Assembly (NCBI GenBank): GCA_965209035.1
Contig: OZ242372.1
Span: forward strand, 1,408,001-1,472,000
DNA length: 64,000 nucleotides
Origin: Gammaproteobacteria bacterium
Lineage (GTDB): Bacteria > Pseudomonadota > Gammaproteobacteria > CBDBNL01 > JAAOII01
Direction of reading: 5' to 3'
Position numbers and translations under genes: made by a program. Numbering within the stretch: the first letter of the stretch is position 1; every line of letters begins with the position of its first letter. Positions 33,957 to 61,400 of the stretch are shown here, one piece after another. The notes under the pieces were generated by a model that saw nothing but the letters and a program-made list of their open reading frames with translations, was not told where the DNA came from and ran no database searches.

Positions 33957-34233
33957 TTGTTATTCACCTCCGCTAAATAAATTTCCGCTAGTTGTTATAT
34001 TGATTCAAAATTAAAAATATTCTTTTTTGTTAATTATTATACTCTCATTAAACCTGCTATGTTTTCATTTCTCGCATATGTCATTGGCTCATCGGCGTAT
34101 CGTTGAAGCGGTAAAACTCGGTTGGGGCGGCTATTGTCATACATATCGTATCCTTCCGGGCTCGTTTGCCTTATAATTTTTACAGACAAGACAACATGCA
34201 ATACTTCCCGATAACGCCATATCCGCGCACCAA

Positions 34234-35094: not shown

Positions 35095-35112
35095 TGCCGA
35101 TGGATCAACCAA

Positions 35113-37325: not shown

Positions 37326-37367
37326 AGATTTTTCATTTTTCATTTTTGATGTTTAAGGCCGAGAAGT

Positions 37368-44788: not shown

Positions 44789-44851
44789 TCTTTTGGGCTT
44801 TCCATATAATGAGAGAAAATTAACTGTCTAAAAATATTTCTGATAACAAAA

Positions 44852-45856
44852 ATGACAAAAATAGCAATTAACGGCTTTGGCCGTATAGGAAGAATGGTTT
44901 GCAGAGCCTGGTTGGAATCTGCTCATAAAAACACACTGCAATTGGTCGCCATTAATGATTTGGTGAGTGCCGAGACATGTGCGCATCTCTTAAAGTATGA
45001 TTCCGTTCACGGTAAGTTGGATATGGATGTGCGTGCGGACGGAGACGGTATTGTGATGGGAGGCACTCGCGTTCAATTGGTTTCCGTGCCTAACCCGAAG
45101 GATTTGCCCTGGAAAGAAGTCGGGGCGGACCTGGTGTTGGAATGCAGCGGTCGGTTCACCACGCGCGCATCGGCCGGCGCGCATCTGGAGGCGGGCGCAC
45201 AGCGTGTGATTATCTCGGCACCGGCAACAGACCCGGACATCACGGTGGTGTTGGGGGTCAATCATAAAAAAATTACAGCCGAACACAAGGTGATTTCCAA
45301 CGCTTCTTGCACCACAAATTGTCTGGCGCCTTTTGTCAAGGTGTTGCAAGCGGAATTGGGGATTAACAAAGGCTATATGACGACGGTGCATTCTTATACG
45401 GGAGATCAGGTGACCGTGGATACGGGGCACAAGGATTTGCGCCGTGCCAGAGCGGCCGCGTTGAATATGATCCCAACTTCTACCGGGGCGGCCAAGGCGG
45501 TTGGGTTGGTATTGCCGGAATTGAAGGGGCTGTTGGATGGCTGTGCGGTGCGTGTGCCGACGGCAAATGTTTCCATGGTGGACCTGACTTTTGAGGCGGC
45601 GCGCAAAACCGATGCGGATGAGATCAACGGGATGATGAAGTCGGCAGCTGCCGGCGAGCTAAAGGGCATTTTGGCGGTGAATGAGGAGCCTTTGGTGTCT
45701 CAGGATTTTTGCCACAATCCGTATTCTTCGATCTTTGATGCCACCCAAACCCGGGTTGTCGGCGGCAATTTTGTGCGCGTTCTTTCCTGGTATGACAACG
45801 AATGGGGTTTTTCCAATCGGATGGTGGAACTGGCGGCGTTTCTGGCGAAGTCTTAG
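44852..45856 (+). CDS. gap: Glyceraldehyde-3-phosphate dehydrogenase type I
   Basis: AINGFGRIGR, SNASCTTNCL, TGAAKAVG, WYDNEWG. Confidence 0.97.
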   Translation: MTKIAINGFGRIGRMVCRAWLESAHKNTLQLVAINDLVSAETCAHLLKYDSVHGKLDMDVRADGDGIVMGGTRVQLVSVPNPKDLPWKEVGADLVLECSGRFTTRASAGAHLEAGAQRVIISAPATDPDITVVLGVNHKKITAEHKVISNASCTTNCLAPFVKVLQAELGINKGYMTTVHSYTGDQVTVDTGHKDLRRARAAALNMIPTSTGAAKAVGLVLPELKGLLDGCAVRVPTANVSMVDLTFEAARKTDADEINGMMKSAAAGELKGILAVNEEPLVSQDFCHNPYSSIFDATQTRVVGGNFVRVLSWYDNEWGFSNRMVELAAFLAKS

Positions 45857-45915
45857 TTTGTCTTAATCCTGTTGCATCGCTCATTTGTTAAACGAACGGT
45901 AAACTAGCGGAACCG

Positions 45916-47340
45916 ATGGATCGCCAGGCCAAGATTATTGCCACTTTGGGGCCTGCGACCGACAGCAAGACCGGCATCGTCTCCTTGCTAAAGGCGGGAG
46001 CGGATGTGGTGCGGATCAACTGCTCGCACGGCGACGAAACGGACAGAGAAAGACGGATTGAGATGGTGCGCGCGGCCGCCGCCGATTTGAAACGGCATGT
46101 GGCGGTGATGCTGGATTTGCAAGGTCCCAAGATTCGCATCGGTCATTTCAAAGAAGGGAAAGTGATGTTGCATCGGGGTGCCTCCTTTGTTTTGGATGTA
46201 TCCAAACGCTCGGCGGGCGACCAAGAATCGGTCGGTGTTTTCCACAAGAACTTGCCGAAAGACTGTCGCCCGCAAGATATCCTGCTGCTGGATGACGGGC
46301 GTCTCACCATGCGGGTGCAAAGCGTTAAAGGAACACGCCTTTACTGCAAGGTGATGAACGGCGGCATGCTTTACAGTCGCAAGGGGCTTAACAAAAAGGG
46401 CGGCGGCTTGTCCGCGGGTGCACTGACATCCAAAGACAGATCGGATATTCGCTTTGCGGCAAAAATAAAAGCCGATTATGTGGCGGTGTCCTTTCCGCGG
46501 TCCGCCGAGGATATGAAGACGGCGACACGGCTGCTGCGGGCGGCGGGCAGCGATGCCGGTTTGATCGCCAAGATAGAAAGAGCCGAGGCGGTGATTAATT
46601 TTGATGTTCTGCGCTCCATTGTTCTGGCAAGTGCCGGTGCGATGTTTGCCCGCGGTGACCTGGGAGTGGAAATAGGCGAGACGGCTCTGATTGGCCTTCA
46701 AAAAGATATGATCGCCTTGTGTCGCACTCACGACCGGTTTGTTATCACGGCAACGCAAATGATGGAGACGATGATTGAAAATCCGCTGCCGACTCGCGCC
46801 GAGGTGTTTGATGTTGCCAATGCCGTTTTGGACGGCACGGATGCGGTGATGTTGTCGGCGGAGACGGCAACCGGTCGCCATCCGGACCTGGTGGTGAAGA
46901 CCATGGCGCGCATTTGCCACAGTGCCGGCGGCTATCGCGGCGGTTTTTTTAGTCGCAAACTGCAAGTGCCGGACAAGATCACGGACATCCATCGCGGCAT
47001 TGCCATCGCGGCCGTGCGAGCGGCGCATCGGGTTGAGGGGGTGCGGGCGATGGTCAGTTTGACCGAAAGCGGCAGTACGCCCTTGCTGATGTCCCGTGTT
47101 AGTACGGATATCCCTATTTACGCGCTGAGCCGCCACGAAAAGACCCTGCGGCGAATGGCGATTTATCGCGATGTGGTTCCGGTCTTTTTTGAGCAGCCGC
47201 AAAAGAATGTGGATCAAGCGGTTCTTATTTTCTTAAAAAAGAATAAACTAATCAAAAAAGGTGATAGAATAGTATTTACTTTTGGAGATCAGTGGTTGAC
47301 ACGCGGCTCCACCAACACGCTTCGGATCTTACAAGCATGA
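45916..47340 (+). CDS. pyk: Pyruvate kinase
   Basis: KIIATLGPA, DLQGPKIR, AKIE, ARGDLG, ATQMME, DAVMLSAE. Confidence 0.96.
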   Translation: MDRQAKIIATLGPATDSKTGIVSLLKAGADVVRINCSHGDETDRERRIEMVRAAAADLKRHVAVMLDLQGPKIRIGHFKEGKVMLHRGASFVLDVSKRSAGDQESVGVFHKNLPKDCRPQDILLLDDGRLTMRVQSVKGTRLYCKVMNGGMLYSRKGLNKKGGGLSAGALTSKDRSDIRFAAKIKADYVAVSFPRSAEDMKTATRLLRAAGSDAGLIAKIERAEAVINFDVLRSIVLASAGAMFARGDLGVEIGETALIGLQKDMIALCRTHDRFVITATQMMETMIENPLPTRAEVFDVANAVLDGTDAVMLSAETATGRHPDLVVKTMARICHSAGGYRGGFFSRKLQVPDKITDIHRGIAIAAVRAAHRVEGVRAMVSLTESGSTPLLMSRVSTDIPIYALSRHEKTLRRMAIYRDVVPVFFEQPQKNVDQAVLIFLKKNKLIKKGDRIVFTFGDQWLTRGSTNTLRILQA

Positions 47341-47373
47341 AGCAGGATTAATTAAAAGAAAAAAAATAAAATT

Positions 47374-48291
47374 ATGGACGGACATATATTTGTTCAGCAA
47401 TTAATTAACGGTTTGATTTTGGGTTCCGTTTACGGTCTCATCGCCGTCGGCTATACGATGGTTTACGGCATTATCGGTATGATTAACTTTGCTCACGGCG
47501 ATGTTTATATGATTAGCGCATACCTTGCCGCAATCGGCATTGCCATCCTTGCCTTCTTTGGGATCACTTGGGTGCCTTTGGTCATTCTGTTGGCGTTGGC
47601 TTTTACGGTGCTGGTAACTTCCGTATATGGCTGGACGATTGAGCGACTTGCGTATCGCCCCTTACGCCAATCCACCCGGTTGGCGCCGTTGATTTCCGCC
47701 ATCGGTATGTCGCTGTTTTTGCAAGATTTTGCGCGCGTCAGCCAGGGTGCGCGCGATCAGGGGGTGCCGAGCATGATTGAAGGTGCCGTGCGCATCGGCG
47801 ACAAGAACGATTTTGTGCAGATGACTTATGTGCAGATATTCATTGTCGTTGCGGCGTTTACCGGGATGTTTTTTCTGCACCGCCTGATTAACAAAACTTC
47901 TTTGGGACGGCAGTGTCGCGCCACCCAACAGGACAGGATGATGGCGGAAGTTTTGGGAATTAACACCGACAGAATTATTTCGCTTGTTTTTGTGATGGGT
48001 GCGGCCATGGCGGCCCTTGCCGGTCTGCTGGTCACCTTAAATTACGGGACATTTAATTTTCATATCGGATTTGTGACCGGAATTAAAGCATTTACGGCGG
48101 CTGTGCTGGGCGGGATAGGCTCCTTGCCGGGTGCGATCCTTGGCGGAATTGTGCTGGGGATGTCGGAGTCGTTGTTTTCCGGTCTGATTAATACGGATTA
48201 CAAGGATGTGTTTGCGTTCTTTTTGTTGGTTTTAATCTTGATTTTTAGACCAAGCGGTCTGCTCGGCAAGCCCGAAGTGGAAAAGGTATAG
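47374..48291 (+). CDS. livH: Branched-chain amino acid ABC transporter permease
   Basis: QQLINGL..GS.YGLIA.GYTMVYGI, INFAHG, KAFTAAVLGGIG. Confidence 0.94.
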   Translation: MDGHIFVQQLINGLILGSVYGLIAVGYTMVYGIIGMINFAHGDVYMISAYLAAIGIAILAFFGITWVPLVILLALAFTVLVTSVYGWTIERLAYRPLRQSTRLAPLISAIGMSLFLQDFARVSQGARDQGVPSMIEGAVRIGDKNDFVQMTYVQIFIVVAAFTGMFFLHRLINKTSLGRQCRATQQDRMMAEVLGINTDRIISLVFVMGAAMAALAGLLVTLNYGTFNFHIGFVTGIKAFTAAVLGGIGSLPGAILGGIVLGMSESLFSGLINTDYKDVFAFFLLVLILIFRPSGLLGKPEVEKV

Positions 48292-48321
48292 GCGCCTGTT
48301 TTTTTGGAACCGGAAACTGAC

Positions 48322-49677
48322 ATGCAAAAAACACACAACATACACAACACAGGCGACCGGCAGTTTCAAATGATACCCGCGCTGCGGCGTGCGTTGCCCG
48401 ATGCTTTTCTCGCCGGTATGATTGCCATCGTTCTCTTTGGTCCCATTATTGGTCTCGTGTTGGACGGCTACGGCTTGCGTAACAACTTGCCGTTCGCTTT
48501 TGGGATCGCCGGTCTGGTGACCGTGGGCCGATTTTTCTCTTCGTTGTTCTTTCAAACCTCAACGGGAGAGGCCGTTCTGGCAAAATTTGCCGCCGGCAGA
48601 AAAGTTCGGGTAACGGTAGCCGGGGACGAGAAGGCATCCCGCGGGAAGGTGTTTCTTGCCCTGTTTGTGATTTTCGCCTTGGCGTATCCGGTGTTAGCGC
48701 ATCTGGCGCCGGATGCCTTGGGGATTTTTGGCGGTCGGTACGGACTGACCATTGTCATTTTGGCATTAATTTATGTGTTACTCGGTATGGGACTGAATGT
48801 GGTAGTGGGGCTTGCCGGTCTTTTGGATCTGGGTTATGTGGCGTTTTACGCCATAGGCGCCTATTCGTTGACGATCGGCTATGCGGAGTTGGGTTTGGGA
48901 TTTTGGAGTGTTTTGATTATCAGTCCTATTTTGGCCGCCTGTTGGGGGGCGGTGCTGGGCTTTCCCGTTTTGCGTATGCATGGCGATTACCTTGCCATAG
49001 TCACTTTGGGCTTTGGCGAAATTATTCGTCTTGTATTAAACAACTGGATTTCTTTTACCGGCGGGCCGAACGGTATGACCGCGCCGGATGTGACTTTTTT
49101 CAATATTCTTTCGTTTTCGCGCAACGGGTTGGGCGGCTTGCCGCCGTTCCACGAGTTTTTTGGCTTGGAATACAGCAGTATGTACAAGTATATGTTCATT
49201 TATTGGCTGCTGCTGTTTGTGGTTGTCTTGTCTTTTTATATTAAGCAGCGTCTGATTCGCATGCCCGTGGGTCGGGCCTGGGAGGCACTGCGCGAAGACG
49301 AGATCGCTTGTCGTTCGCTCGGGCTTAACCATGTGTTGGTAAAATTGTCCGCGTTTATGATCGGCGCCAGTGTCGGCGGGATTGCCGGCGTATTTTTTGC
49401 CGCTTATCAAAAGTTTGTTAATCCGTCTTCGTTCACTTTTTTTGAATCGGCATTGATCGTTGCCATAGTCGTTCTCGGCGGGCTCGGCTCCACCGTGGGC
49501 GTGGTGATTGCCGCTTTCATCCTGACAATCCTTCCCGAGGTTCTGCGCGAGTTTGCCAATTATCGTGTCATGCTATTCGGCATTTTGACAGTCTTAATGA
49601 TGATCTGGCGGCCGCGCGGTTTTATCACTCCCGTTCGGTTGAAATATCCGAGAATTAAAATCAAGGATGCCGGCTGA
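48322..49677 (+). CDS. livM: Branched-chain amino acid ABC transporter permease
   Basis: GLNVVVGLAGLLDLGYVAFY, GDYLAIVTLGFGEI, GRAWEALREDE; start may be TTG 48304. Confidence 0.93.
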   Translation: MQKTHNIHNTGDRQFQMIPALRRALPDAFLAGMIAIVLFGPIIGLVLDGYGLRNNLPFAFGIAGLVTVGRFFSSLFFQTSTGEAVLAKFAAGRKVRVTVAGDEKASRGKVFLALFVIFALAYPVLAHLAPDALGIFGGRYGLTIVILALIYVLLGMGLNVVVGLAGLLDLGYVAFYAIGAYSLTIGYAELGLGFWSVLIISPILAACWGAVLGFPVLRMHGDYLAIVTLGFGEIIRLVLNNWISFTGGPNGMTAPDVTFFNILSFSRNGLGGLPPFHEFFGLEYSSMYKYMFIYWLLLFVVVLSFYIKQRLIRMPVGRAWEALREDEIACRSLGLNHVLVKLSAFMIGASVGGIAGVFFAAYQKFVNPSSFTFFESALIVAIVVLGGLGSTVGVVIAAFILTILPEVLREFANYRVMLFGILTVLMMIWRPRGFITPVRLKYPRIKIKDAG

Positions 49678-50536
49678 GTCGCCTCTTTTGCGGGTGAGTA
49701 ACCTGGGGATGAAGTTTGGCGGTTTGACTGCGTTGAAGTCCGTTAACTTTGAGGTCGCCAAGGACAGTATCACCGCTCTCATAGGTCCGAACGGCGCCGG
49801 CAAGACAACGGTGTTTAATTGTTTAACCGGCTTCTATCGTGCCACTCGCGGTAGTAATGTTTTTTTGTCTTTTGAAGGCGAACGGGTCGACCTGATGGAA
49901 ATACTGGGCAAGGACTTTGCCCTTGGCGATCTGGTCAATCCGATTTCTTTTTTTAGGATTCTTTTTTATAAGATGTTTGGTGGCACCCATCAAGTGAATC
50001 GCGCCGGGCTGGCGCGCACCTTCCAAAACACGCGGCTGTTTAAGGAAATGACGGCGGCTGAAAATCTTTTGGTGGCACAGCATATGCGGTTGGACCGAAA
50101 CTTGCTAAAAGGTATTCTGAATACCGATTCCTATCGCAAGTCTTTGGAAAATGCCAAAGAAGTGGCGTACGGATGGTTGGATTTTCTCGAACTCGGCGAC
50201 ATTGGCGATCGCCTGGCGGGCGAATTGCCTTACGGGATGCAAAAGCGGCTTGAAATTGCCCGCGCACTTTGCACGGTCCCCCGTTTGTTGTGTTTGGATG
50301 AGCCGGCCGCCGGCTTAAATTCTTCGGAAACCTCGGACCTGAGTAAAATGATTAAAAAACTTCGGGACGAACACGGGGTGACCATACTCATCATTGAACA
50401 CGATATGTATATGGTGATGGAGATTTCCGATAAAATTGTGGTGCTGGATCACGGCGATGTTTTGTTTGCCGGTACACCGGACGAGGTTAAGAATAACCCG
50501 GATGTGATTGCCGCCTACTTGGGCGAGGAAGAATAA
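49667..50536 (+). CDS. livG: Branched-chain amino acid ABC transporter ATPase
   Basis: GPNGAGKTT, RTFQN, LPYG.QKRLEIARA, DEPAAG, AYLG. Confidence 0.93.
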   Translation: MPAESPLLRVSNLGMKFGGLTALKSVNFEVAKDSITALIGPNGAGKTTVFNCLTGFYRATRGSNVFLSFEGERVDLMEILGKDFALGDLVNPISFFRILFYKMFGGTHQVNRAGLARTFQNTRLFKEMTAAENLLVAQHMRLDRNLLKGILNTDSYRKSLENAKEVAYGWLDFLELGDIGDRLAGELPYGMQKRLEIARALCTVPRLLCLDEPAAGLNSSETSDLSKMIKKLRDEHGVTILIIEHDMYMVMEISDKIVVLDHGDVLFAGTPDEVKNNPDVIAAYLGEEE

Positions 50537-50556
50537 AGCACAAAGTACAAAGCATA

Positions 50557-51294
50557 ATGCAAAAATCCAAAACATCCGGCGGCGGGGAGCCTCTGTTGCG
50601 GTTTGAAAAGGTCAACACCTACTACGGGCCGATTCACGCGCTGAAAAATATTTCCATGCATGTTAATGTCGGCGAGATCGTGACGATCATCGGCTGCAAC
50701 GGCGCGGGGAAATCCACTCTTTTGATGACCACTTTTGCCAATCCCGGGGCGCGCAGCGGTTCCGTCATGTATGAGAACACGGAGATTACGCATTATGCCA
50801 CCAATCAAGTTGCGAGTCTGGGGATTGCTTTGGTGCCGGAAGGCAGAAGGATTTTTTCGGCAATGACCGTGGAGGAAAATCTCCTAATAGGCTCTCTCAA
50901 AATACCGCTTGCGTCGGCACGCAAAGAATTGGAGCATATCTTTGAAATGTTTCCGTTGCTCCGGGAGAGAAGAACACAGCGTGCCGGCACTCTGTCGGGA
51001 GGCGAGCAGCAGATGCTTGCGATTGGCAGAGGCCTTATGAGCAGGCCGAAGTTACTGCTGCTGGACGAGCCCAGTTTGGGGCTGGCGCCTTTAATTATTC
51101 GCCAGATTTTTGAGAAACTTAAAGAAGTCGCCGAGCAGGGGGTTACCATTCTTCTGGTGGAACAAAACGCCAACTTGGCTCTCAAACTTGCGCGGCGCGG
51201 CTATGTGCTGGTGAACGGTGAGATTGAAATTGCCGGCGACAGCCGGACCCTTCTTGCCAACAAAGAAGTCCAAGCCGCCTACCTGGGCGGATAA
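50557..51294 (+). CDS. livF: Branched-chain amino acid ABC transporter ATPase
   Basis: GCNGAGKST, VPEGRRIF, LSGGEQQM, DEPSLGLAP, VEQN. Confidence 0.94.
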   Translation: MQKSKTSGGGEPLLRFEKVNTYYGPIHALKNISMHVNVGEIVTIIGCNGAGKSTLLMTTFANPGARSGSVMYENTEITHYATNQVASLGIALVPEGRRIFSAMTVEENLLIGSLKIPLASARKELEHIFEMFPLLRERRTQRAGTLSGGEQQMLAIGRGLMSRPKLLLLDEPSLGLAPLIIRQIFEKLKEVAEQGVTILLVEQNANLALKLARRGYVLVNGEIEIAGDSRTLLANKEVQAAYLGG

Positions 51295-51567
51295 TTCGGG
51301 CGAGTTAGAAGCAGAAGTTAGAATCGGGCATTAAGCGGGAATCGGACCTTCCCGCATACACATTTCGGTATTTTGGAGGGGCTTTTTGTTTGTGCTTTTT
51401 ACTTTTATCTTCCTTGTCCCGGGAAGTTATCTTTCTGTCAGTTTCCCGCTTCTCGCTTTCCCGAGTCACCGACACAGGGTAGATTAAACACCTAAAATAT
51501 CCAAAACATCTATCGAGATCTATCGCGGCTGAATGATTGAATCACCCGCAGGTTGGATCTGTTTTAA

Positions 51568-52233
51568 TTGAGCGAATACCAAGTATTTTTTGCCTTGGCG
51601 GGCTTTCATCTCCTTGCGGTCATGAGCCCCGGACCGGATATGGCAATCATCGTTCGGCACGGCCTGGTGCATGGCAAGACACCCGCCACCTACACCGCCA
51701 TCGGCATCGGCACGGGTATTTTGGTGCATGTTCTTTATTCCGTTTTGGGGCTGGGTTTGATTCTTGCAACCTATCCGTCTGTCTTTGTATTGCTTAAGTA
51801 TCTCGGGGTGGCTTATCTGATCTTTCTGGCATATTCCGGTGTGCGAGACGGCTATGCCCGTCTCTCGGCACAGGCCGCGGGCGATTTGGCCGCGAATAAT
51901 GACACCCCGCTTCTGCCGTTGTCCGCGACCTCGGCATTCCGCACCGGCTTTCTAACCAACGCACTCAATATTAAGGCGACAATGTTTTTTCTTTCCGTTT
52001 ACTTGCTGGTCGCCCAACAGAGCCCGCCGGTTCTGCGCGTTGTTTACGGAATGTACATGGCGGTGGCGACGGGACTTTACTTTGTTGTTTTGGCGCGTTT
52101 GGTTGGCAGATTGCGCCCTTTTTTACGGGCATATACGGGTCAGGTAGAAATCCTTACCGCTATATTAATGGCGGTTCTGGCTCTGTTGTTGGCATGGACC
52201 GATGTGCCGGCTTTTGTGCGGGCATCTTCTTAA
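51568..52233 (+). CDS. LysE/RhtB-family exporter
   Basis: SPGPD, GIGTG..VH, GVAYL, FRTGFLTNALNIK. Confidence 0.9.
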   Translation: MSEYQVFFALAGFHLLAVMSPGPDMAIIVRHGLVHGKTPATYTAIGIGTGILVHVLYSVLGLGLILATYPSVFVLLKYLGVAYLIFLAYSGVRDGYARLSAQAAGDLAANNDTPLLPLSATSAFRTGFLTNALNIKATMFFLSVYLLVAQQSPPVLRVVYGMYMAVATGLYFVVLARLVGRLRPFLRAYTGQVEILTAILMAVLALLLAWTDVPAFVRASS

Positions 52234-52351
52234 AAAAACCCTTAAACCTTTAAACTCGCCCGGAATCGCCCCGCCTATTCCGGTCCCGGGCGGCGCGAAT
52301 CTTCGAAAACCCTGTTGTCTGTATTGTCTAAGGTCTTAATGTCTTAATGCC

Positions 52352-55300
52352 TTATTCGGAGCCGCCCACCCGAACCTCCAGTCCGATCGTGCAGATGTTG
52401 CTTTCATTCGGCACCGGATCGTTTTGGACTTGATCTTCATCGGCTTCCGTGCAGGCACCATAATAGTAGGTGCCGGCATCGTTCGGTGCCGTTATATTAA
52501 TGGAATAGGACCCTTCGCCGCCCGGAGTTCCCCCGGCAGGCCGTTCTTGAGTTCCCAACTCAAAATCATCCGGACTAATGAGCGCATTATCGGAGCGGTA
52601 GAAACTGATGATGGACGGAAAACAAGAGGCACTTACCACGCAATCAAAATCAACGCTAATATTAAGCATTTCCTCGGTTGCCGGCGAACTGCTATTGACT
52701 TCCAAATTTTCCAAGACATAGTTACCGCGCTTTGTCACCTGAACGGGGACTGAGCAGTCTTCCGGCAGGTGTTCAAAACAACTGCCGTAATAGTAGGTTC
52801 TTGCTGCCAGACCCGGGAGCTCGTTAATTTCGCTACTATAACTGGCATTATCATAGTGATTCGGCGCTGATACGGAGAAAAAACTTCCTGCTATGGGATC
52901 CTCGCTGCCGTTGATGGTCTCATTATTGGAGCGGTAAAAGGATAAGGAACTTGGACTCAAACCGCAGTCGCCGCCGCGACAACCGACCATTCCGCTGAGA
53001 CGAAAAACATTCGGCAAGTTTTCACCGAGGGCGAGGCGATTCAAGGCTGAATCAAAACGAAAAGTGTTGGCAGTGGAATTAGTCGTGCCGATATGCCGCA
53101 GCAGACCTTTCACCGTAACAGGAACAGAATCGTGTTGGGTGCAAACCGGGGGATTGGTGCCGTCTATACAGGCGAAGTAATAATAGTTGCCGTTCGTTGC
53201 GGCGGCATTAATCCGCGTTGAAATAGTCCGGCTTGCACCGGCGGCAAGAGGAGCAACCGGGACAGGAGATCCAATGGTTTTCATATTCGCATTGGAAGGC
53301 AGCGGAGGGTCAGAATATGTGCTACTAACATAAAAGCTAACATCGGCCATTTCACAGTCTTGGGTGTTCGCGGAACAAAGGATCTCAACCGAGAGGTTTA
53401 GCGGTTCTCCCTGTGCGGCAAGACTGATATTTGTTATGACCCGCTCATCATTAAAAGACAGAACCCCGTCCGGCAGGCTCACTGTGATGGTGGCAATTTT
53501 TACACAGCTGTCGTCATCTCCCGGCAAACAAAGACCATAATGATAGGTGCCGGGGGTCAAAGGGGCGGTTGTGTCAATTGGCGGTGTGGAATGGTGTCTG
53601 CTCTCCTCGATGGCGGGGATAAGAGTACTGCCTTCTTCGTCATCCGAAGTGTTTATCGTATCATCATCCGAACGATACAAAATCACTTGAGATTGGGCAC
53701 AAGGACCGTCCTCACAGAAGAGGAACGCCATAAATTCCAAAGAATCACCCGCGCGAATACCGTCTTTGTCTTGATTGGGGCCTACGAAAGTTAAACGACC
53801 GGGATTAGCGGGTGGCATGAGATCTGTTAGGACAACCGGATCGGACAGCATACCGCACAGATCCGGTTCGGGGCCGGTGATGCAAGCAAAATATCGATAG
53901 GTCCCTGCTTCGGACGGAGTCGTAATATCCGGGGTAACGGTTTGTTCTCCGCTGTCATTCAACGGAGGAACGGGAACCGGTTCGCCAAGAGGATTATCGA
54001 AAAAAGTATTTAACTGACCCTGAGTAGCATAAAACTGAAGGGTGTCGCCGGCACAATCGCCGCCACTGCAAGAGATGGCGACGGACAATTGCAAAGGATC
54101 ACCCGAGTTCAAGGCGGTTGCATTAACGCCGACCTTCCCGACAGACAACATTCCGATCACGGAGGGTATAGTCACCATTAAAGATTCGGAAAGATTAGGC
54201 AGAGAAGGAGGGGTCAGGCAATCATTCGCTTCCAATAAAATACAAATAAAATATTGATATGTGCCCGCCTCTTGCGGAGTGTTCGTATTCAAAGAGATCA
54301 TCATAGATCCTCCGTCCGTCAAGGGCCCAACATCTGCCGCAGGGCCGATAGCAGCTGACATCCGGGTGAGTTCACCTTGGGTGTTTGTGTCTTCATAAGT
54401 GACATAAAATTGAGCCGTTGCCGCCGCGCAGTCGCCGCCAGCGCAAAGAATGGTTGCGGTTAATTCCAAAGGCACGCTTTGGCCGGCCTGTGCGTTACTG
54501 ATATCTATTGTCGTCGCTCCGTCCGGTCGCAGAGTCCCGGCTGCCGAACCCGGCGGCGCGGGGACTGCCGTCACGGTGATCTCAGCCGATGGACCACTGC
54601 AGACATTCGTGTTTTCATAACATGCATGGTATCCGTAAGTCCCGCTTACGCCGGGTATGTCAAAGTCAGTGGCATTCACCGTAACTGTATCTCCGCCTTC
54701 CGGGTTTGTGGGAGAAGTGACATCGAAGGGCGGACCGACCGCGGTTCTTTCGCCCGCGTTCGTGCTTCCCGTCGTCCCCGGTGCGGATGTCCGATAAAAC
54801 TGAACCCGGCGAATTCTGTCCACCGGGCAGACCGCACCCTGACATAGGATGTTTACGGACAACACCGCATCTTCTGTTGTCGTATATTCATTCTTGTCGG
54901 TCGTAACATTGTCGCGAAAAATAACAAAAGGCTCATTGACAGAAAGAGAACTAACAGGAGAACACGCATCGTCAATACAAGAATAGTAATAATAGCCGTT
55001 ATTTCGTGTGACAGGCAAGGGGGGAGCGAAGGTGATGGGTATCTCATCGCCATTAACAAAAAGAGCGGGAAAACTTCTTCCCAATTCCTCATCATTGGCA
55101 GCAACCGTCACATTATTTGTCGAGCGATAAAAAGTGACGATAAAATCGCGACAGAAGTCTATCAAACATCGGACAGTGGTATTCAAAGATACCAGATTAC
55201 CGGGACCGCCTTGTTGTAGAGCGGTATTCAATTCCACTTGCGGAGGAATAGGGGGATTGTCGGCATTGTCATCGGGATCGGCACAGCCGGTTACAAACAA

Positions 55301-55423
55301 AGCGGCTGTCAATAGAAAAATAAATGAAAAATTCCTTAATCCCGGCCGGAGGCCGGGATGGAAGGAATTAGTTACAAAGCGGCTGATGCGCTTATTATTA
55401 TTGTTATTAATGTTATTTGGCAT
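52352..55423 (-). CDS. Surface lipoprotein with eight Cys-containing Ig-like (CARDB-like) repeats
   Basis: Lipobox VTGC; eight ~120-aa units C-x4/6-C...FY(R)S...GTYxYxxC-xn-C; frame open to TTG 55495. Confidence 0.78.
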   Translation of the reverse strand: MPNNINNNNNKRISRFVTNSFHPGLRPGLRNFSFIFLLTAALFVTGCADPDDNADNPPIPPQVELNTALQQGGPGNLVSLNTTVRCLIDFCRDFIVTFYRSTNNVTVAANDEELGRSFPALFVNGDEIPITFAPPLPVTRNNGYYYYSCIDDACSPVSSLSVNEPFVIFRDNVTTDKNEYTTTEDAVLSVNILCQGAVCPVDRIRRVQFYRTSAPGTTGSTNAGERTAVGPPFDVTSPTNPEGGDTVTVNATDFDIPGVSGTYGYHACYENTNVCSGPSAEITVTAVPAPPGSAAGTLRPDGATTIDISNAQAGQSVPLELTATILCAGGDCAAATAQFYVTYEDTNTQGELTRMSAAIGPAADVGPLTDGGSMMISLNTNTPQEAGTYQYFICILLEANDCLTPPSLPNLSESLMVTIPSVIGMLSVGKVGVNATALNSGDPLQLSVAISCSGGDCAGDTLQFYATQGQLNTFFDNPLGEPVPVPPLNDSGEQTVTPDITTPSEAGTYRYFACITGPEPDLCGMLSDPVVLTDLMPPANPGRLTFVGPNQDKDGIRAGDSLEFMAFLFCEDGPCAQSQVILYRSDDDTINTSDDEEGSTLIPAIEESRHHSTPPIDTTAPLTPGTYHYGLCLPGDDDSCVKIATITVSLPDGVLSFNDERVITNISLAAQGEPLNLSVEILCSANTQDCEMADVSFYVSSTYSDPPLPSNANMKTIGSPVPVAPLAAGASRTISTRINAAATNGNYYYFACIDGTNPPVCTQHDSVPVTVKGLLRHIGTTNSTANTFRFDSALNRLALGENLPNVFRLSGMVGCRGGDCGLSPSSLSFYRSNNETINGSEDPIAGSFFSVSAPNHYDNASYSSEINELPGLAARTYYYGSCFEHLPEDCSVPVQVTKRGNYVLENLEVNSSSPATEEMLNISVDFDCVVSASCFPSIISFYRSDNALISPDDFELGTQERPAGGTPGGEGSYSINITAPNDAGTYYYGACTEADEDQVQNDPVPNESNICTIGLEVRVGGSE

Positions 55424-55697
55424 GAGTTGTTTATTGATTATTTGTTGTTTTTTTAATGACTTCTTTTGTAAAGAATAATATGTATCCGCAGGCAACTTGC
55501 GAATAAGACAAGATGCGCGTGCGGAGGATGTATTGGCTGAATTTCACTTGCCATACGGTTATTTTAGCACAAGTTCTTATTTTTGTGTATTTTTGTATGG
55601 CCCCACCCATTTCCGGACTTTTGTTGTTTTTGCAAAAACCGGATCGGCGAGAGTTGTTTGTGAGTGTTAGTTAAAGGAAGACTCTTGAAATTGTTCT

Positions 55698-56767
55698 TTA
55701 ATTATTGAGCAGGCGTGTGAGTTCTTCGTTCGGCCAGGTGTAATAGTTGTTCAGGTATTTGATCGCCTTTTCCCGTTCTTCGTTTCTTGCGTGTGTTGTG
55801 TAGTTACCCGGATTGCGATCGCCGATGCTGTCGGTATTGCTTTTGTGAAGGCCCGCAGCTTCGTTCGGGTTCAAACCCAAAAAACAGAGCGTCTTTTTGG
55901 CAACCGAGATCGGGTCGGCAAAGAGCTCCTCACTGCGAAGCACGAGAAGTTGTTTGTTGGGAAAGAGTGTCCGATATCTTTGCAGTTGCTTGGCATAAAG
56001 ACCGCGCTCTCGGTAGGCAAACAGCCGCAGGATATCATAGTCGCGCGGCGAGCTCGGCTCCTTCTTGCAGTGTCCGCACGGCGGCAAGTACGCGCGGGTC
56101 CTCGCCGGTAAGAGCCTCAAGAATGCCGCGCGTTTCTCGCACAGATTCCGCCACTTCCGGCTGCGGGGTCTTCGGGGATGGATAGCCCCGGGTTGCATCA
56201 TAATCCCGGTCCCGGTTGCAATTAAAGTAGTAATCGGAGATTGCCCGCTTTGTCGGATCCTTGATGAGAACAATTAACTTGGCAGCCGGTATCAGTTTAT
56301 GAATGGCGGCCGCACAACCGGGAAAGAACAGATAGTTGACCGACTTGTCCGGGCGGACGGGGTATTGTCGTAACCGCGCTTTCCGAATTCCCCGGCTGTA
56401 GAGCAGCAAGTAGAGCAGCAAGTAGTGAATTGCTCTCGCAGTGTCTGCGTCCGTCTTGTTCAGCCCCCAAACAGGCGACATGCACAATTGCGAAAAGTGC
56501 TCCGCATCCGCCCAACGGTCAAAAAAGCGGATCTCATCGCTGTGTTCGGGTGCGTAAACGGCCGGATGTTGCATGAGAAGTGTTTTTAGCTGCCCGGTGC
56601 CGCAGCGTTTCCCGCCCAAAATAAAAGTATTTGGCAAGAGAGCATTCCAGCCGGGCGGCGGGGGCAAGGGCACGCGGTCAATAAGACGATACCCAATAAG
56701 AAAGAGCACAGGGAAGATAGCGCAGTATATAGCGAGCGCGCAAAAATCGGTGGTGTGTTGTCAACAT
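55698..56767 (-). pseudogene. Frameshifted PAPS-dependent sulfotransferase (HS3ST-like)
   Basis: GGKRCGT (5'-PSB), EIRFFD, KLIVLIKDP.KRAISDY in ORF 56035-56709; ERGLYAKQL.RY...EELFADP continues in ORF 55698-56273; possible second shift near 56712 linking to ATG 56767. Confidence 0.75.
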
Positions 56768-56895
56768 CTTAAAACCGAGTTATTATATCCTTTCCGAGAT
56801 GATGCGGGTCTTTTTGAAAACAACACTCACAAGTGCCTAACGGGGGCAAACAAACATACACATAGTTATCCAAAATTGTTTATAATGGACAACAT

Positions 56896-59133
56896 ATGAA
56901 ATTAAAGGTCGGGCTTTTTTGTGTTCTAGCCCTTACCGCTTTTAGCGGCTGTGCGCAGGTAGAAGATGCAACTTTATCGATCCCCGCCCGGGATAATCAA
57001 GCTACTTCTTCCATGTCCCTGGCTATTCCGATGCGAGAGGGTATGCGATTGGAATGGACGAATCCGTCCGATGCACAGATCTCGGGCAATATTGAGAGGT
57101 TTAACATATCTTGGGAAAGGCTGTCCGACAATGAAAAGGATATGGTTGATAAGTCGAATCAAACGGGAGCGGGAGTCGATGCTTCTTATGATTTCGCCAA
57201 CTTAACGGATGAGGAGGAGCATCAGTTTCTTGTGCGCGCGATAATTTCGGGTGAGGATCCTATTCTTGTTTTGAATCTGACCGCAATGACCGGAGCAAAT
57301 TACGACGGTGATGGCGAACCGGACTCTTCGGATGATGACGATGACAATGACGGTGTACTTGACGCTACTGATCTCTGTGCCACAAATGCGACAGACTGGA
57401 CATCCAATTCCACTACGGACTATGATGGCGATGGTTGCCGTGATAGTGACGAGGACTCGGACGATGACAATGACGGTGTACTTGACGCTACTGATCTCTG
57501 TGCCACAAATGCGACAGGCTGGACATCCAATTCCACTACGGACTATGATGGCGATGGTTGCCGTGATAGCGACGAGGACCCGGACAATGACAGTGACAAT
57601 GACGGTGTACTTGATGCTACCGATCTCTGTGCCACAAATGCGACAGACTGGACATCCAATTCCACTACGGACTATGATAGCGATGGTTGCCGTGATAGTG
57701 ACGAGGATCCGGACGATGACAATGACGGTGTACTTGACGCTACCGATCTCTGTGCCACAAATGCGACAGACTGGACATCCGATCCCACTACGGACTATGA
57801 TGGCGATGGTTGCCGTGATAGTGACGAGGACACGCCGATCTTTGAGCAAGACTCTTATGCTTTTGAGTTTCCGCCGGGCAGAACCGGTAGGATCAACGAG
57901 GTCACCGTTCGTAATCCTGTTACGGCGTTTGTGTTGGGAGGAATGACGACAAACCTAACCATCGACACACAAGTGCAAACAGGAGTTCTTTCCGCCGTTG
58001 GGGTATTAGCTGCCGGCGTGTATATGTTGCATGTTAATGCGAGCAACGCAGTTGGCGAGACCCGGGCGAACATCACTTTAAATGTGACGGACACGCCTAC
58101 AATGCAGCCGGTCTTTTCGCGAGAACGGACGGTGATTCGTTTGTCCCCCGGTGATACTTACACCGGCGAACCGAACCTGTTCTTTCAAGATTCTGTTACG
58201 ATTGCCGAGGCCGAGTATGGCGGCGAGAAGGTTCCGGGTCGCGGCAATTTTACCGAGCTTGGTGATATTTTCGGTTTTGACGCCGCCGGGAACTTTTCAA
58301 TCAATCAGTCGATTGATGTGTCTGACACCCGCGGGCTATTTTTACGCATTAATGCAAGCAACAGCACGGGTGAATCCGAAGCCTTTGTTCATATTTTGGT
58401 TACGGATCCAAGCAATCGCACTTTGTATTTTGCAAGTGACGGCAGTGTTGAGACCATTGGCGAGGTGCACCCGGTGATGCCGGACAATGCCACACGCCGT
58501 TTTAACATTACGTCCGGGAATCAAACACTTTTTGGTATCAATAATACCGATGGTACACTGTCAGTCCAAGATGCCCCGCAGGACCGGACGCACTATTTGG
58601 GAATTGAAGAAGAATATGCGGGAGGAACCCGGTTCTTTGCCAATGTAACGGTGTTTGGCAAGACACCCGACGGCGGGAACATAACGCATTATGTCTATTG
58701 GTTGGCGGAAAACGAATGGTTGAAGCCGGATCGCAGTGAAGCCTTGCCGAATATTAATGCCTCTGCGGGAGATCAACTGGTGTTTCTCTGCCCGCGCCCG
58801 ATGTTGGCAACGGCATTTCCCGGCCCCAATATTTGGTATACCCAAAACAGGACGGTTGCGGATAACTGCCGGCCGGATCGGTTTGCCGAAGCCGCCCAAG
58901 CGTTTTTTATCGGGGCATGCGACGCAGCCGGCAAAGAAATCACAGTTCCTTTAGAAGTTCCTTTGGACGCCGGCAATCCCGTTCGGTTTGAAGCGGACAA
59001 TTCTTATTACTTGATGTCCTTTTCGGGTGGGGCAGAGGAGGAAACTACTTCCCGCGAGTTCAAGACGGGTGCAGCCTGTCAGTCCGGGATGAAGTTCCGG
59101 TTAAATGTATTGCCGCCTAACATGTCGCCTTAG
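56896..59133 (+). CDS. Surface lipoprotein: FN3-like + 4 TSP3-type repeats + cadherin/Ig-like modules + C-terminal ephrin-like (cupredoxin-fold) domain
   Basis: Lipobox FSGC; LEWTNP; DNDGVLD..DLC...DYDGDGC x4; PIFEQDSYAF and FNITSGN..LFGIN..DGTL cadherin-like motifs; C-terminal 4-Cys domain. Confidence 0.8.
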   Translation: MKLKVGLFCVLALTAFSGCAQVEDATLSIPARDNQATSSMSLAIPMREGMRLEWTNPSDAQISGNIERFNISWERLSDNEKDMVDKSNQTGAGVDASYDFANLTDEEEHQFLVRAIISGEDPILVLNLTAMTGANYDGDGEPDSSDDDDDNDGVLDATDLCATNATDWTSNSTTDYDGDGCRDSDEDSDDDNDGVLDATDLCATNATGWTSNSTTDYDGDGCRDSDEDPDNDSDNDGVLDATDLCATNATDWTSNSTTDYDSDGCRDSDEDPDDDNDGVLDATDLCATNATDWTSDPTTDYDGDGCRDSDEDTPIFEQDSYAFEFPPGRTGRINEVTVRNPVTAFVLGGMTTNLTIDTQVQTGVLSAVGVLAAGVYMLHVNASNAVGETRANITLNVTDTPTMQPVFSRERTVIRLSPGDTYTGEPNLFFQDSVTIAEAEYGGEKVPGRGNFTELGDIFGFDAAGNFSINQSIDVSDTRGLFLRINASNSTGESEAFVHILVTDPSNRTLYFASDGSVETIGEVHPVMPDNATRRFNITSGNQTLFGINNTDGTLSVQDAPQDRTHYLGIEEEYAGGTRFFANVTVFGKTPDGGNITHYVYWLAENEWLKPDRSEALPNINASAGDQLVFLCPRPMLATAFPGPNIWYTQNRTVADNCRPDRFAEAAQAFFIGACDAAGKEITVPLEVPLDAGNPVRFEADNSYYLMSFSGGAEEETTSREFKTGAACQSGMKFRLNVLPPNMSP
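57337..57831 (+). repeat. Four near-identical 123-129-bp in-frame TSP3-type repeats
   Basis: Units start at about 57337, 57460, 57589 and 57712. Confidence 0.93.
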
Positions 59134-60093
59134 GAGAACGCCTCTTAGTTAGAAGGAAGAACGATAAAGAACAACTAACGCCGAGTAATTGGAGGTAATT
59201 GGCATCACCGGCACCATAAAGGTAAAAACTTCCAGTCGTCCAATCTTCCCGGCAAGATCGCAAACGACAAAAGAATCTTAACCGGGTTACTCATTCCATC
59301 CCGGCGTAGTTGTGCGCCGCCTCGCCCTCGCCTTAGGAGAAGGCCGCTTAGTTAGAAGGAAGAACGATAAAGAACAACTAACGCCGGGTAATTGGAGGTA
59401 ATTGGCATCACCGGCACCATAAAGGTAAAGACTTTCGGTCGTCCAATCTTCCCGGCAAGATCGCAAACGACAAAAGAATCTTAACCGGGTTACTCATCCC
59501 GGCATAGTTGTGCGCCGCCTCGCCCTCGCCTTAGGAGAACGCCTCTTAGTTAGAAGGAAGAACGATAAAGAACAACTAACGCCGAGTAATTGGAGGTAAT
59601 TGGCATCACCGGCACCATAAAGGTAAAGACTTTCGGTCGTCCAATCTTCCCGGCAAGATCGCAAACGACAAAAGAATCTTAACCGGGTTACTCATTCCAT
59701 CCCGGCGTAGTTATGCACCGCATCGCCCTCGCCTTAGGAGAACGCCTCTTAGTTAGAAGGAAGAACGATAAAGAACAACTAACGCCGGGTAATAGGCATC
59801 AGCAGCACCATAAAGGTAAAAACTTCCAGCCTCCCCGGCAAGATCGCAAACGACAAAAGAATCTTAACCGGGTTCCTCATTCCATCCCGGCGTAGTTGTG
59901 CGCCGCCTCGCCCTCGCCTTAGGAGAACGCCTCTTAGTTAGAAGGAAGAACGATAAAGAACAACTAACGCCAGGTAATAGGCATCAACAGCACCATAAAG
60001 GTAAAGACCTCCAGCCTCCCCAACAACATCGCAAACGACAAAAGAATCTTAACCGGGTTACTCATCTCGGCATAGTTGTGCGCCGCCTCGCCC
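59125..60093. repeat. Tandem array of five 180-203-bp units derived from the trkH 3' end plus intergenic DNA
   Basis: Units start TCGCCTTAGGAG at 59125, 59328, 59526, 59729 and 59914; the last unit is the genuine trkH C-terminus. Confidence 0.95.
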
Positions 60094-61400
60094 AAGGCGG
60101 GCCCCAGGTTGTTGAGCATTGCGATGGTGACAGACCAGGCGGTGATATGGCTGCTGCCGCTAACCAGCAGCAACGACAGGACCACAAAGAAAACAAACAG
60201 GTAAACGGCGCAAAAACCCCAGACCGCATCCAGAACCCTGCCGGAAACACTGGTATTGGCAAGACGCACATTGAACATACCGTGAGGATGCACCACCCGC
60301 TTGCATTCGCGATAGCCTTGCTTGATGACCAAAAGAAACCGAATCGCCTTGATACCGCCGCCGGCGGAGCCGGCACAACAACCCACTATGGCAAAAGTGA
60401 ACAGAAAGAAAAGAAGCCCAAACGGAAAATTGTTGTAGTTTTGCAAGGTGAACCCTGTGGTGGTGACGATGGAGAGGCTTTGGAAGAGAACGGCGACGAG
60501 CGAGTCGTAGCCGGTGATGCGCGGCAGTGAAATTAGGACGCTAAAAGTGAGGAGGATAAAGATCCAGAGAGCAAAGAATTTCCATTCCGGGTCGGTGAAA
60601 TAGGGGCGCAGGCTCTTGCGCCGCCACACATAAAAGTGCAGGGAGAAATTCATCGCCGAAAGAAGCATAAAAAATATTGCCACCCATTGAATTTTGCTAT
60701 CGGTAAAATGCCCAAAGTTGTTATCATGCGGCGTAAAACCGCCGATGGACACCGTGGAAAAGCCGTAGTTGATCGCTTCAAAAACAGTCATTCCCGCCAA
60801 GCGATAGGCGAGGATGCAAAAAAGCGTCAAGATGATGTAGATCACCCAAAGGAACTTTGCCGTCTCCGTGATACGCGGTGTCAGTTTGGTATCTTTCACG
60901 GGACCGGGAATTTCGGTGCGGTAAAGTTGCATGCCGCCGACACCAAGCAAAGGCAAGATCGCAATTGCCAACAGGATAATCCCCATCCCGCCGATCCACT
61001 GTAAAAACTGGCGGTAAAAAAGAACGGACGGCGGCAAAACGGAAACCTTCTCATAAATGGTTGCGCCCGTGGTGGTGATACCGGACATGGCTTCAAACCA
61101 GGCATCGGTAAATGTGAGAGGGTGATCCAAAAACAAGAACGGCAGGGTCGCGCCGAGTGTTATGAACAGCCAAGAGGATATGGTAATGATAATGCTATCG
61201 CGCGGTTTGAGGTGGCGTGTTTCGCCGCCGGAGCATCCCCACAGTAATAATCCGACCAGGAGTATGACGAGCATTGCCTTAAAAAAAGCGAAATGGGCAC
61301 CGTCTTGAAAGTAAAAAGAAAACAACAGAGGCGCGGTCAGTGACAGACAAAACAAAGTTAAAAGAGTGCCGAGCACCCGGGCGACAAAACGCAGGGACAT
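59964..61400 (-). CDS. trkH: Trk potassium uptake permease
   Basis: FEAMSGITTTGA, QWIGGMG, STVSIGGF, TTTGF, GSAGGGIK, LNNLGPA, MLLGRLE. Confidence 0.95.
   Translation of the reverse strand: MSLRFVARVLGTLLTLFCLSLTAPLLFSFYFQDGAHFAFFKAMLVILLVGLLLWGCSGGETRHLKPRDSIIITISSWLFITLGATLPFLFLDHPLTFTDAWFEAMSGITTTGATIYEKVSVLPPSVLFYRQFLQWIGGMGIILLAIAILPLLGVGGMQLYRTEIPGPVKDTKLTPRITETAKFLWVIYIILTLFCILAYRLAGMTVFEAINYGFSTVSIGGFTPHDNNFGHFTDSKIQWVAIFFMLLSAMNFSLHFYVWRRKSLRPYFTDPEWKFFALWIFILLTFSVLISLPRITGYDSLVAVLFQSLSIVTTTGFTLQNYNNFPFGLLFFLFTFAIVGCCAGSAGGGIKAIRFLLVIKQGYRECKRVVHPHGMFNVRLANTSVSGRVLDAVWGFCAVYLFVFFVVLSLLLVSGSSHITAWSVTIAMLNNLGPALGEAAHNYAEMSNPVKILLSFAMLLGRLEVFTFMVLLMPITWR

Follow-up and report, generated by a model that had tools for sequence, protein, structure and literature searches.

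A divergent ephrin-like domain at the C-terminus of a predicted modular lipoprotein from a gammaproteobacterium

Signalling between ephrins and Eph receptors is treated as an invention of animals (holozoans), and the G-H loop of animal ephrins docks into the Eph receptor. The stretch of DNA analysed here, a window of 64,000 nucleotides from a gammaproteobacterial genome (contig OZ242372.1), encodes a 745-residue protein, P0001, whose C-terminal domain, the head, resembles the receptor-binding domain (RBD) of ephrins. Bacterial ephrin domains have already been published for Endozoicomonas, and the P0001 family adds to them a strongly diverged form, a new architecture and a new lineage.

In the passages of the papers that describe them, the ephrin-like proteins of Endozoicomonas are 31–46% identical to cnidarian ephrins (PMC4781883, PMC9743535). 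The proteins EfnB2_1 and EfnB2_2 of E. montiporae are described in such a passage as secreted and copper-free, and are 34–39% identical to proteins of Nematostella; the proposal was made that they bind Eph receptors of the coral and set off endocytosis (PMC4781883). A passage by Arcas et al. reads the same Endozoicomonas ephrin genes as products of horizontal gene transfer (PMC6993872), and passages of two further papers report ephrin expansions in Endozoicomonas clade B (PMC9743535, PMC12491435). A passage of the AnnoTree paper, which covers more than 27,000 bacterial genomes, lists the Pfam family Ephrin (PF00812) as confined to the subtree of Endozoicomonas (PMC6511854). Chlamydia provides a precedent for Eph receptors serving as entry receptors of bacteria, as stated in a passage of PMC4408118. 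Our literature search for ephrin domains in other bacteria found only the work on Endozoicomonas; supplementary tables may list more. In our survey of Endozoicomonadaceae, PF00812 was present in 6 of 63 genomes, with 29 matches that are often arranged in tandem clusters. Clusters of three to six copies are located at G404:C1:700762-705590 and 4377313-4379875, G447:C1:1435262-1443087, and G446:C22:126292-131175.

Homology of the head to ephrins

The isolated head of P0001 was matched by PF00812 with 28.4 bits (E 1.8e-6) from position 6 to the last of the 140 profile positions, and the gathering cut-off of this family is 25 bits. Two orthologues reached 27.2 and 27.0 bits, above the cut-off, which the scores of the head family as a whole straddle. 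A six-frame search of the source genome with PF00812 gave a single match of 27.7 bits, and none of the 14 control genomes was matched. The comparison of Ephrin with cupredoxin families that was recommended in the earlier note was decided in favour of Ephrin: no other Pfam family, those of the cupredoxins included, matched the isolated head at E ≤ 10.

A hidden Markov model (HMM) that contained no member of the head family was built from 55 ephrins, namely 29 Endozoicomonas loci, 11 proteins from a cnidarian-type search, one of which belongs to Endozoicomonas, and 15 rotifer-type proteins. Among the 2429 open reading frames (ORFs) of at least 150 residues in the source genome, this model matched P0001 alone (E 2.1e-7), and nothing else had an E-value of 10 or less. 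The real head scored 34.3 bits, in comparison with 6.9 bits for the best of 5000 shuffled sequences and −1.8 bits for the reversed sequence. A search of the Protein Data Bank (PDB) with a profile of four family members resulted in 13 weak matches, the top ten of which were ephrin-B2 (E 0.007–0.015). After the addition of the most divergent family member, which is encoded in the genome G004, all 15 matches were to ephrin-B1, ephrin-B2 or ephrin-B3, the best with an E-value of 1.5e-6. The gain in score upon inclusion of a divergent sequence is the behaviour expected of true homology.

Alignment of the head family with ephrins by hhalign gave probabilities of 98.0% for the Endozoicomonas group (E 2.2e-13, 118 columns), 97.1% for the cnidarian-type group (E 6.8e-11, 130 columns), and 96.5% for the rotifer-type group (E 8.8e-10, 141 columns). 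The cnidarian-type alignment consisted of ten cnidarian-type rows and the database protein P0074, which is identical to the Endozoicomonas locus L094. The same comparison with 12 bacterial Copper-bind domains gave 1.6% over 17 columns, and the ephrin groups themselves reached 0.2–0.6% against these domains. A search of five whole Endozoicomonas genomes with the head-family profile yielded 14 matches, every one of which was on a gene recognised by PF00812. Among 1.84 billion representative proteins, the profile search found seven matches at E ≤ 0.001: three family members, three repeat proteins, and a rotifer-type ephrin of 306 residues. The last of these, the one convincing match from outside the family, was aligned end to end (E 2.8e-4), is 75% identical to an 'Ephrin-B2' of Brachionus, and scores 97 bits with PF00812. 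The repeat proteins P0007, P0008 and P0010, which had short partial matches, were set aside by eye as candidates for family membership.

The head is very probably a divergent homologue of the animal ephrin RBD, and its identity to animal ephrins is about 20–25%. An ephrin-like domain in place of an ordinary cupredoxin had been suggested in the earlier note on the basis of the motifs YVYW, GDQLVFLCPR, ADNC, IGAC, FEADNSYYLMSFSGG and GAACQSGMKFRLNV, all of which are present in the translation of 58684-59130. The ephrin-B strings given in the note (GDKLDIICPK onwards) are present in the PDB chains of ephrin-B2 aligned to the head, and the Pfam, PDB-profile, hhalign and reciprocal searches agree with its assignment. 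The end of the domain was corrected, since the previously given position 59112 falls six codons before the stop and the domain reaches approximately 59130.

We compared the head family with the 17 columns that are at least 80% conserved in the 55 ephrins. The four Cys columns, which are 98–100% conserved in the ephrins, hold Cys throughout the head family; the exception in the G004 member is a two-residue alignment offset. The spacing between the cysteines is 26/17/53 in the head and 27/12/52 in the ephrin-B2 chain 6p7y_B. According to a passage of PMC6485061, ephrins retain two disulfides (Cys 1-3 and 2-4) and a G-H loop whose length is conserved, together with four aromatic residues close to the loops of the interface. 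Two disulfides are likewise predicted for the head. The W, F and YY positions of ephrins correspond to W6, F102, Y108 and Y109 of the head. Position 109 is invariant in the head family, whose members contain F/F/L/V/F at position 102 and Y/Y/Y/F/H at position 108. One Asn of the G-H loop (N98 of the head) is invariant and corresponds in the alignment to the Asn in the S-P-N-L of ephrin-B2, where the paralogue P0006 and the G004 member have S-A-N-L.

Ephrins and cupredoxins have a common fold, and copper binding by cupredoxins needs one Cys and two His residues, with Gly and Met being more variable, according to passages of PMC6485061. The head of P0001 contains a single His, at position 2 on its N-terminal edge, and a type-1 copper site is therefore excluded, in line with the argument of the earlier note against a redox cupredoxin. 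The other members of the family have one, one, two and six His residues. In the member with two, both are located in the first strand, and in two of the four others the single His is at the N-terminal edge, as in P0001. Genes of the copper-binding family PF00127 were found in none of the five genomes of this bacterial family and in 12 of 61 genomes across the relatives sampled, a tally that includes G044, which is marked unpublished.

Protein layout, head family and phylogeny

P0001 is encoded by a single open frame (Table 1), and the ORF list contains no further in-frame start upstream. Inspection by eye of the N-terminus, MKLKVGLFCVLALTAFSGC, identified a short basic start, a hydrophobic core, and the lipobox ...LTAFSGC at residues 13–19, with Ala at position +2 after the lipobox Cys. 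The corresponding region of P0006 reads ...SMLIGC. The protein ends seven residues past the head domain and lacks a hydrophobic tail; the anchor is the N-terminal lipobox. This signal agrees with the previous description of P0001 as a bacterial lipoprotein, and the N-terminus is probably lipidated. The genes for LspA, LolA and DsbB are all present in the source genome, so lipoprotein processing, sorting to the outer membrane, and periplasmic disulfide formation are possible.

The lipobox is followed by a fibronectin type III (fn3)-like module, repeats resembling thrombospondin type 3 (TSP3), a middle region, and the head. Pfam fn3 did not match P0001 itself; its matches were to the corresponding parts of the orthologue P0003 (E 1.6e-10) and the paralogue P0006 (E 1.3e-9). 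In the Asp-rich, Cys-containing repeats, Tandem Repeats Finder (TRF) detected a period of 123 nucleotides in 4.0 copies with 93% matches, and the pattern DxDxDGxxDxxD is visible in them. The Pfam family TSP_3 gave a weak match in P0001 (E 0.35), E 2.6e-4 in P0003, and up to 4.4e-10 in sister stalk proteins. The stalk of fn3, TSP3 and cadherin modules put forward in the earlier note was thus retained in its first two parts, through matches in the orthologue, the paralogue and the sister proteins, whereas Pfam Cadherin had no match in P0001 at E ≤ 10 and none in the genome at E ≤ 0.001. The middle region of 284 residues had no significant match in Pfam or the PDB (best PDB E 0.59), and within the source genome it is common to only two ORFs, those of P0001 and P0006.

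The fn3-like or TSP3-like stalk modules are present in 51 ORFs, which make up 7.6% of the source genome, and only two of these ORFs combine them with the middle region and the ephrin-like head. Among ten other stalk proteins that were sampled, Pfam fn3 was matched in five and TSP_3 in five, and GLUG motifs occur in the region of the head in five. The sister genome G001 has 118 stalk-module matches, in comparison with 96 in the source genome. A literature search for a named bacterial lineage with a similar expansion of fn3, TSP3 and GLUG modules found nothing usable.

The head family consists of P0001, its paralogue P0006, three proteins from metagenomes, and one partial gene in G004. The paralogue has 953 residues and the same architecture, and its gene (G000:C1:1241887-1244769) is located 220 kb from that of P0001. 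The two proteins are 43% identical over 504 residues that include the head; the identity is 33% in the head and 45–47% in the spacer modules. The three metagenome proteins are 77–82% identical to P0001, and one of them is a fragment. The G004 gene, from another genus of the same bacterial family, encodes the same fusion. The metagenome protein P0005 (180 residues) matches the head at residues 41–115 and continues with unrelated sequence past the YYF motif; it originates from a short contig and looks frameshifted or chimeric.

PF00812 and the family profile had no match in 400 genomes of the class, and a further 400 from the rest of the phylum were without a match as well. Scans with the family alignment returned 85 pattern matches in a collection of genome contigs and 100 in a collection of metagenome contigs, none of which was confirmed. 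Weak matches were obtained in G014 (PF00812, 17 bits, with one internal stop) and in G005 (family profile, E 0.015, inside a frame of 6081 residues). The order of the source organism is represented by six genomes in the collection searched.

The phylogeny with animal ephrins that the earlier note had called for was calculated for 60 domains and, without the two longest rows, for 58 domains. Both trees are unrooted, and long branches meet in them. In the 60-row tree, the head family forms its own clade (100/99) outside the clade of cnidarian and Endozoicomonas ephrins (98/96) and outside the rotifer clade (99/97). It again forms its own clade in the 58-row tree, in which the rotifer clade is intact (100/98). 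Approximately 4 substitutions per site separate the branch of the head family from every ephrin in the sample. Because the trees are unrooted and the branches long, the reading of this placement is limited to the head family not being nested within the sampled groups. In codon usage, the P0001 gene resembles the genome at large (codon distance at the 18th percentile), and its GC content is 0.51, in comparison with the genome mean of 0.507. The codon usage of the head alone is ordinary as well, at the 26th percentile of genome pieces of the same length. Long residence in the lineage, rather than recent import, is indicated by this ordinary composition, by the deeply diverged paralogue, and by the member in G004.

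Binding partner and rival explanations

Based on the layout of P0001 and the homology of its head, a function of the protein can be proposed. P0001 may be a modular protein of the adhesin type that is anchored by lipid, probably in the outer membrane, and exposed on the cell surface. From the anchor outwards, it would consist of the fn3-like module, four TSP3-like repeats of the calcium-binding type, about three beta-rich spacers, and the head, which would be a copper-free ephrin RBD homologue with two disulfides. By means of the N-terminal lipid anchor and the long stalk, the head would be kept at a distance from the cell, in a geometry that mirrors animal ephrins, whose anchor is proximal to the membrane and whose RBD is distal to it, except that the polarity of the chain is reversed. 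The head would most likely recognise a protein partner on the surface of a eukaryotic cell, for which an Eph-type receptor would be the first candidate, and the recognition could provide attachment and perhaps uptake, as was proposed for the ephrin genes of Endozoicomonas. The function of the head as a surface-displayed adhesin is probable. That its partner is an Eph-type receptor is doubtful, although such a receptor is a candidate, and the mimicry of a host Eph ligand suggested in the earlier note is a hypothesis of the same standing. We hold the explanation as a whole, in which the Eph-type receptor is the first candidate only, tentatively and with slightly less than even confidence.

Several observations weigh against this explanation. 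The PF00812 score of the whole P0001 is 23.5 bits, just below the cut-off, that of the P0006 head is 15.4 bits (E 0.018), and the G004 member gave no Pfam match. A PDB search with the single sequence of the head returned no match at E ≤ 10, and the fold and the disulfide pairing of the head are predictions from sequence alignment. The distribution of the family is patchy: it was not found in three of the four other genomes of the bacterial family (G001–G003), even with the family profile. The tip of the G-H loop in P0001 lacks residues aligned to the Leu-Trp-Gly of ephrin-B2 and is about two to three residues shorter. Furthermore, this loop is the most variable stretch of the head, with 53% identity over 17 aligned residues in the comparison with P0004, whereas its flanks are 84–85% identical. 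The surface exposure of P0001 is presumed, but a lipobox alone does not confer it in Gram-negative bacteria, and a search for the Slam family SlipAM had no match, although the control was silent too. There was no pointer to an association with animals, and ankyrin repeats (Ank_2) were not found in the genome.

The head may have the ephrin fold and bind a partner other than an Eph receptor. It would then be a generic, fast-evolving beta-sandwich binder for another molecule of a host or prey, for matrix or for a bacterium, and one of several interchangeable heads. This alternative, which accommodates the same homology evidence, is a genuine possibility, if less than an even one. The tip of the G-H loop is not conserved and differs between orthologues and between paralogues, the head branch is far from the sampled ephrins, and the heads of the two paralogues have diverged more than their spacers. 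The same stalk carries other heads in the source genome, and no pointer to a host was obtained. To our knowledge, the ephrin RBD has no documented role beyond Eph binding, which speaks for an Eph-type partner. The four aromatic residues that lie near the interface loops in ephrins, according to a passage of PMC6485061, are kept in the head, and its G-H loop is of similar length and contains the invariant Asn. The precedent of Endozoicomonas was also read as Eph binding (PMC4781883, PMC9743535, PMC12491435), in passages that contain no binding experiments.

It is improbable that the head family is an old, copper-free ephrin-like lineage that was maintained independently in bacteria and is not a recent theft from animals. 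Such a lineage could be the sister of all animal ephrins, or could stand on the donor side of a transfer. This history is compatible with the trees, which are unrooted, with codon usage that resembles the rest of the genome, with the deep divergence of the paralogues, and with the occurrence of the family in two genera. If the head family were the sister of animal ephrins, it would be an extant form connecting cupredoxins with ephrins. If bacteria were the donors, the two-disulfide fold of the ephrin ligands would have arisen in bacteria and entered the stem lineage of animals.

The resemblance of the head to ephrins would be due to chance or composition if the head were an unrelated beta domain containing cysteines. 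The modest scores of about 28 bits, the score of the whole protein below the Pfam cut-off, the empty single-sequence PDB search, and the failure of two family members in Pfam are what would be expected in such a case. However, none of the 5000 shuffled heads approached the score of the real one, P0001 was the sole match of the independent ephrin HMM in its genome, and the scores rose as divergent members joined the profile. All 14 matches of the reciprocal search in five foreign genomes were to ephrin genes, and the 400 genomes of the class, the 400 others of the phylum, and the 14 controls were without a match. Chance resemblance is thus very unlikely.

Still less likely is a conventional type-1 copper cupredoxin with redox activity, similar to azurin or plastocyanin, that was fused to a lipoprotein in the manner of lipid-modified azurin. 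The common fold of ephrins and cupredoxins (PMC6485061) would permit it, and the head has a Cys and a Met four residues apart near its C-terminus (CQSGM). Nevertheless, the copper site needs two His residues besides Cys (PMC6485061), and the head has a single His, at its N-terminal edge. The Pfam families Copper-bind, Cu_bind_like and Cupredoxin had no match to it at E ≤ 10, the hhalign comparison with Copper-bind domains gave next to nothing, and PF00127 was not found in the five genomes of the bacterial family. It is hardly credible that the head stems from the DNA of a eukaryotic host that was joined to a bacterial gene by an error of assembly, even though ephrins are animal proteins and the P0001 gene is located beside a tandem array at a break in synteny, since the reading frame is unbroken from lipobox to head, the GC content and codon usage of the head are typical, a diverged second copy has the same architecture elsewhere in the genome, the same fusion is found in orthologues on other contigs and in G004, and a contig from a public run, which may be the source sample, covers 57802-59154 without differences.

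Genome context and comparison with known systems

The source genome comprises 2.24 Mb in two contigs and is 92.7% complete. Its GlnA places the organism in the Gammaproteobacteria and is at most 65% identical to that of named relatives. No flagellin was found in a search of the genome. The Eph-receptor-side family Ephrin_lbd (PF01404) had no match in it either, but this search was silent in every control genome too. The P0001 gene was detected in three sequencing runs of one study and one sample, none of which is an RNA run. An independent sample, X4, contained 21 reads, 17 of which are only 90–95% alike; this is too thin, and nothing was drawn from it.

Table 1 Features of the P0001 gene and its surroundings in the window
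Feature	Position	Strand	Basis
Whole gene, predicted modular lipoprotein P0001, stop included	56896..59133	+	ORF list, translation
Predicted signal peptide and lipobox, ending at Cys19 (codon 56950-56952)	56896..56952	+	MKLKVGLFCVLALTAFSGC, by eye
fn3-like module, residues ~41-135	57016..57300	+	Pfam fn3 in homologues P0003/P0006; aligns with P0006
Four tandem 41-residue (123-nt) TSP type-3-like repeats, residues ~148-312	57337..57831	+	TRF, Pfam TSP_3
Middle region, residues 313-596, about three beta-rich Ig/cadherin-like modules	57832..58683	+	No family match
Ephrin-RBD-like head, residues 597-745, 149 residues	58684..59130	+	Pfam Ephrin, PDB profile, hhalign, reciprocal searches, conserved columns
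Cys codons of the head	58789-58791, 58867-58869, 58918-58920, 59077-59079	+	
Four further fn3 proteins	6568-8994, 9184-11820, 12794-15289, 27880-29268	all −	Pfam fn3
Tandem array	59125-60093		Period ~185-203 nt, 5 copies, 90% matches
trkH	59964-61400	−	
Sulfotransferase, split into overlapping ORFs	56035-56709, 55698-56273	−	Pfam Sulfotransfer_1/_3
1047-residue repeat protein	52352-55495	−	
Low-GC stretch, probable restriction-modification island	32000-37400		GC 0.405-0.418 vs ~0.51
DNA methylase fused to HEAT repeats	32529-33956	−	
PLD-like/AlwI-type nuclease	35907-37325	+	

The tandem array downstream of the P0001 gene (Table 1) starts six nucleotides before the stop codon and reaches the 3' end of trkH. 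It has no Rfam match, and its unit, read on the minus strand, looks like a repeated trkH tail. The 3' flanks of trkH in G001–G003, three other genomes of this bacterial family (loci L149, L150 and L151), have no ORF in common with positions 43000–59963 of the window. Therefore, the position of the P0001 gene is that of a rearrangement break, and the array of trkH tails lies at the same break. Since these flanks share no ORF with the 43–64 kb part of the window, an 'empty site' is not definable. The sulfotransferase located directly upstream, and oriented divergently from the P0001 gene, is probably a frameshifted pseudogene. The N-terminal region of the neighbouring 1047-residue protein resembles a lipobox (...LFVTGC). 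This protein also contains approximately ten Cys-containing repeats, some 95 residues long, that end in G-x-Y-x-Y-x-x-C, and it had no Pfam match at E ≤ 0.001. Further away, the low-GC stretch with the methylase and nuclease genes was probably imported.

A second family of bacterial ephrins would show that the ephrin fold was recruited by bacteria more than once, or that it was kept for a long time. With its 149 residues and four cysteines, the head is a compact domain on which the binding partners of such domains could be studied. Binding to the Eph receptor of a host would make it a convenient example of molecular mimicry in a bacterium with a reduced genome. Without such binding, it would illustrate the extent to which the ephrin scaffold can change when its core is kept.

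The head can be compared with several known systems. Bacterial monodomain cupredoxins belong to the same broad fold class, and lipid-anchored azurin, mentioned in a passage of PMC6485061, is a precedent for the attachment of such a domain to a membrane. They differ from the head in having no detectable sequence similarity to it, and the head lacks copper ligands and is predicted to have two disulfides instead. The SRS and 6-Cys antigens of apicomplexans are surface proteins of parasites built on an ephrin-like sandwich and are thought to be derived from a host gene, according to the same source (PMC6485061). The 6-Cys protein P41 was found in the PDB searches in insignificant matches only (E 0.37–0.52, over the N-terminal 45 residues), and it was not among the 15 matches of the better profile. 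With the modular adhesins of Gram-negative bacteria, which contain fn3, TSP3 and GLUG modules, P0001 has its stalk in common, as do 50 other ORFs of the source genome.

The closest bacterial counterparts are the ephrins of Endozoicomonas, which gave the highest hhalign score of the three groups. Like the head of P0001, which is predicted to be secreted, they are secreted, copper-free domains encoded by a gammaproteobacterium of the marine type. The Endozoicomonas domains score 47–86.5 bits with PF00812, in contrast to 28 bits for the head, and they intermix with cnidarian ephrins in the tree, whereas the head family is outside that clade. They are located near the N-terminus, starting 26–95 residues into the open frame and being followed by 190–500 residues, whereas the head of P0001 is C-terminal. 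The Endozoicomonas genomes that encode ephrins have 5.4–7.4 Mb, and P0001 is encoded in a 2.2-Mb genome of another order. Passages of the literature read the Endozoicomonas domains as recent transfers from corals; the P0001 family is far more diverged and is mounted, in reversed orientation, on an fn3/TSP3 adhesin stalk.

Animal ephrins (6p7y_B, 1iko_P, 1kgy_E) are similar to the head in homology over the whole domain, in the nearly identical spacing of the cysteines, in the W, F and YY positions, in the lack of copper ligands, and in the predicted placement of the domain away from the membrane. They differ in the order of their parts: in animal ephrins, the RBD is N-terminal and is followed by a glycosylphosphatidylinositol or transmembrane anchor, whereas the head of P0001 forms the C-terminal end of a predicted lipoprotein of 745 residues.

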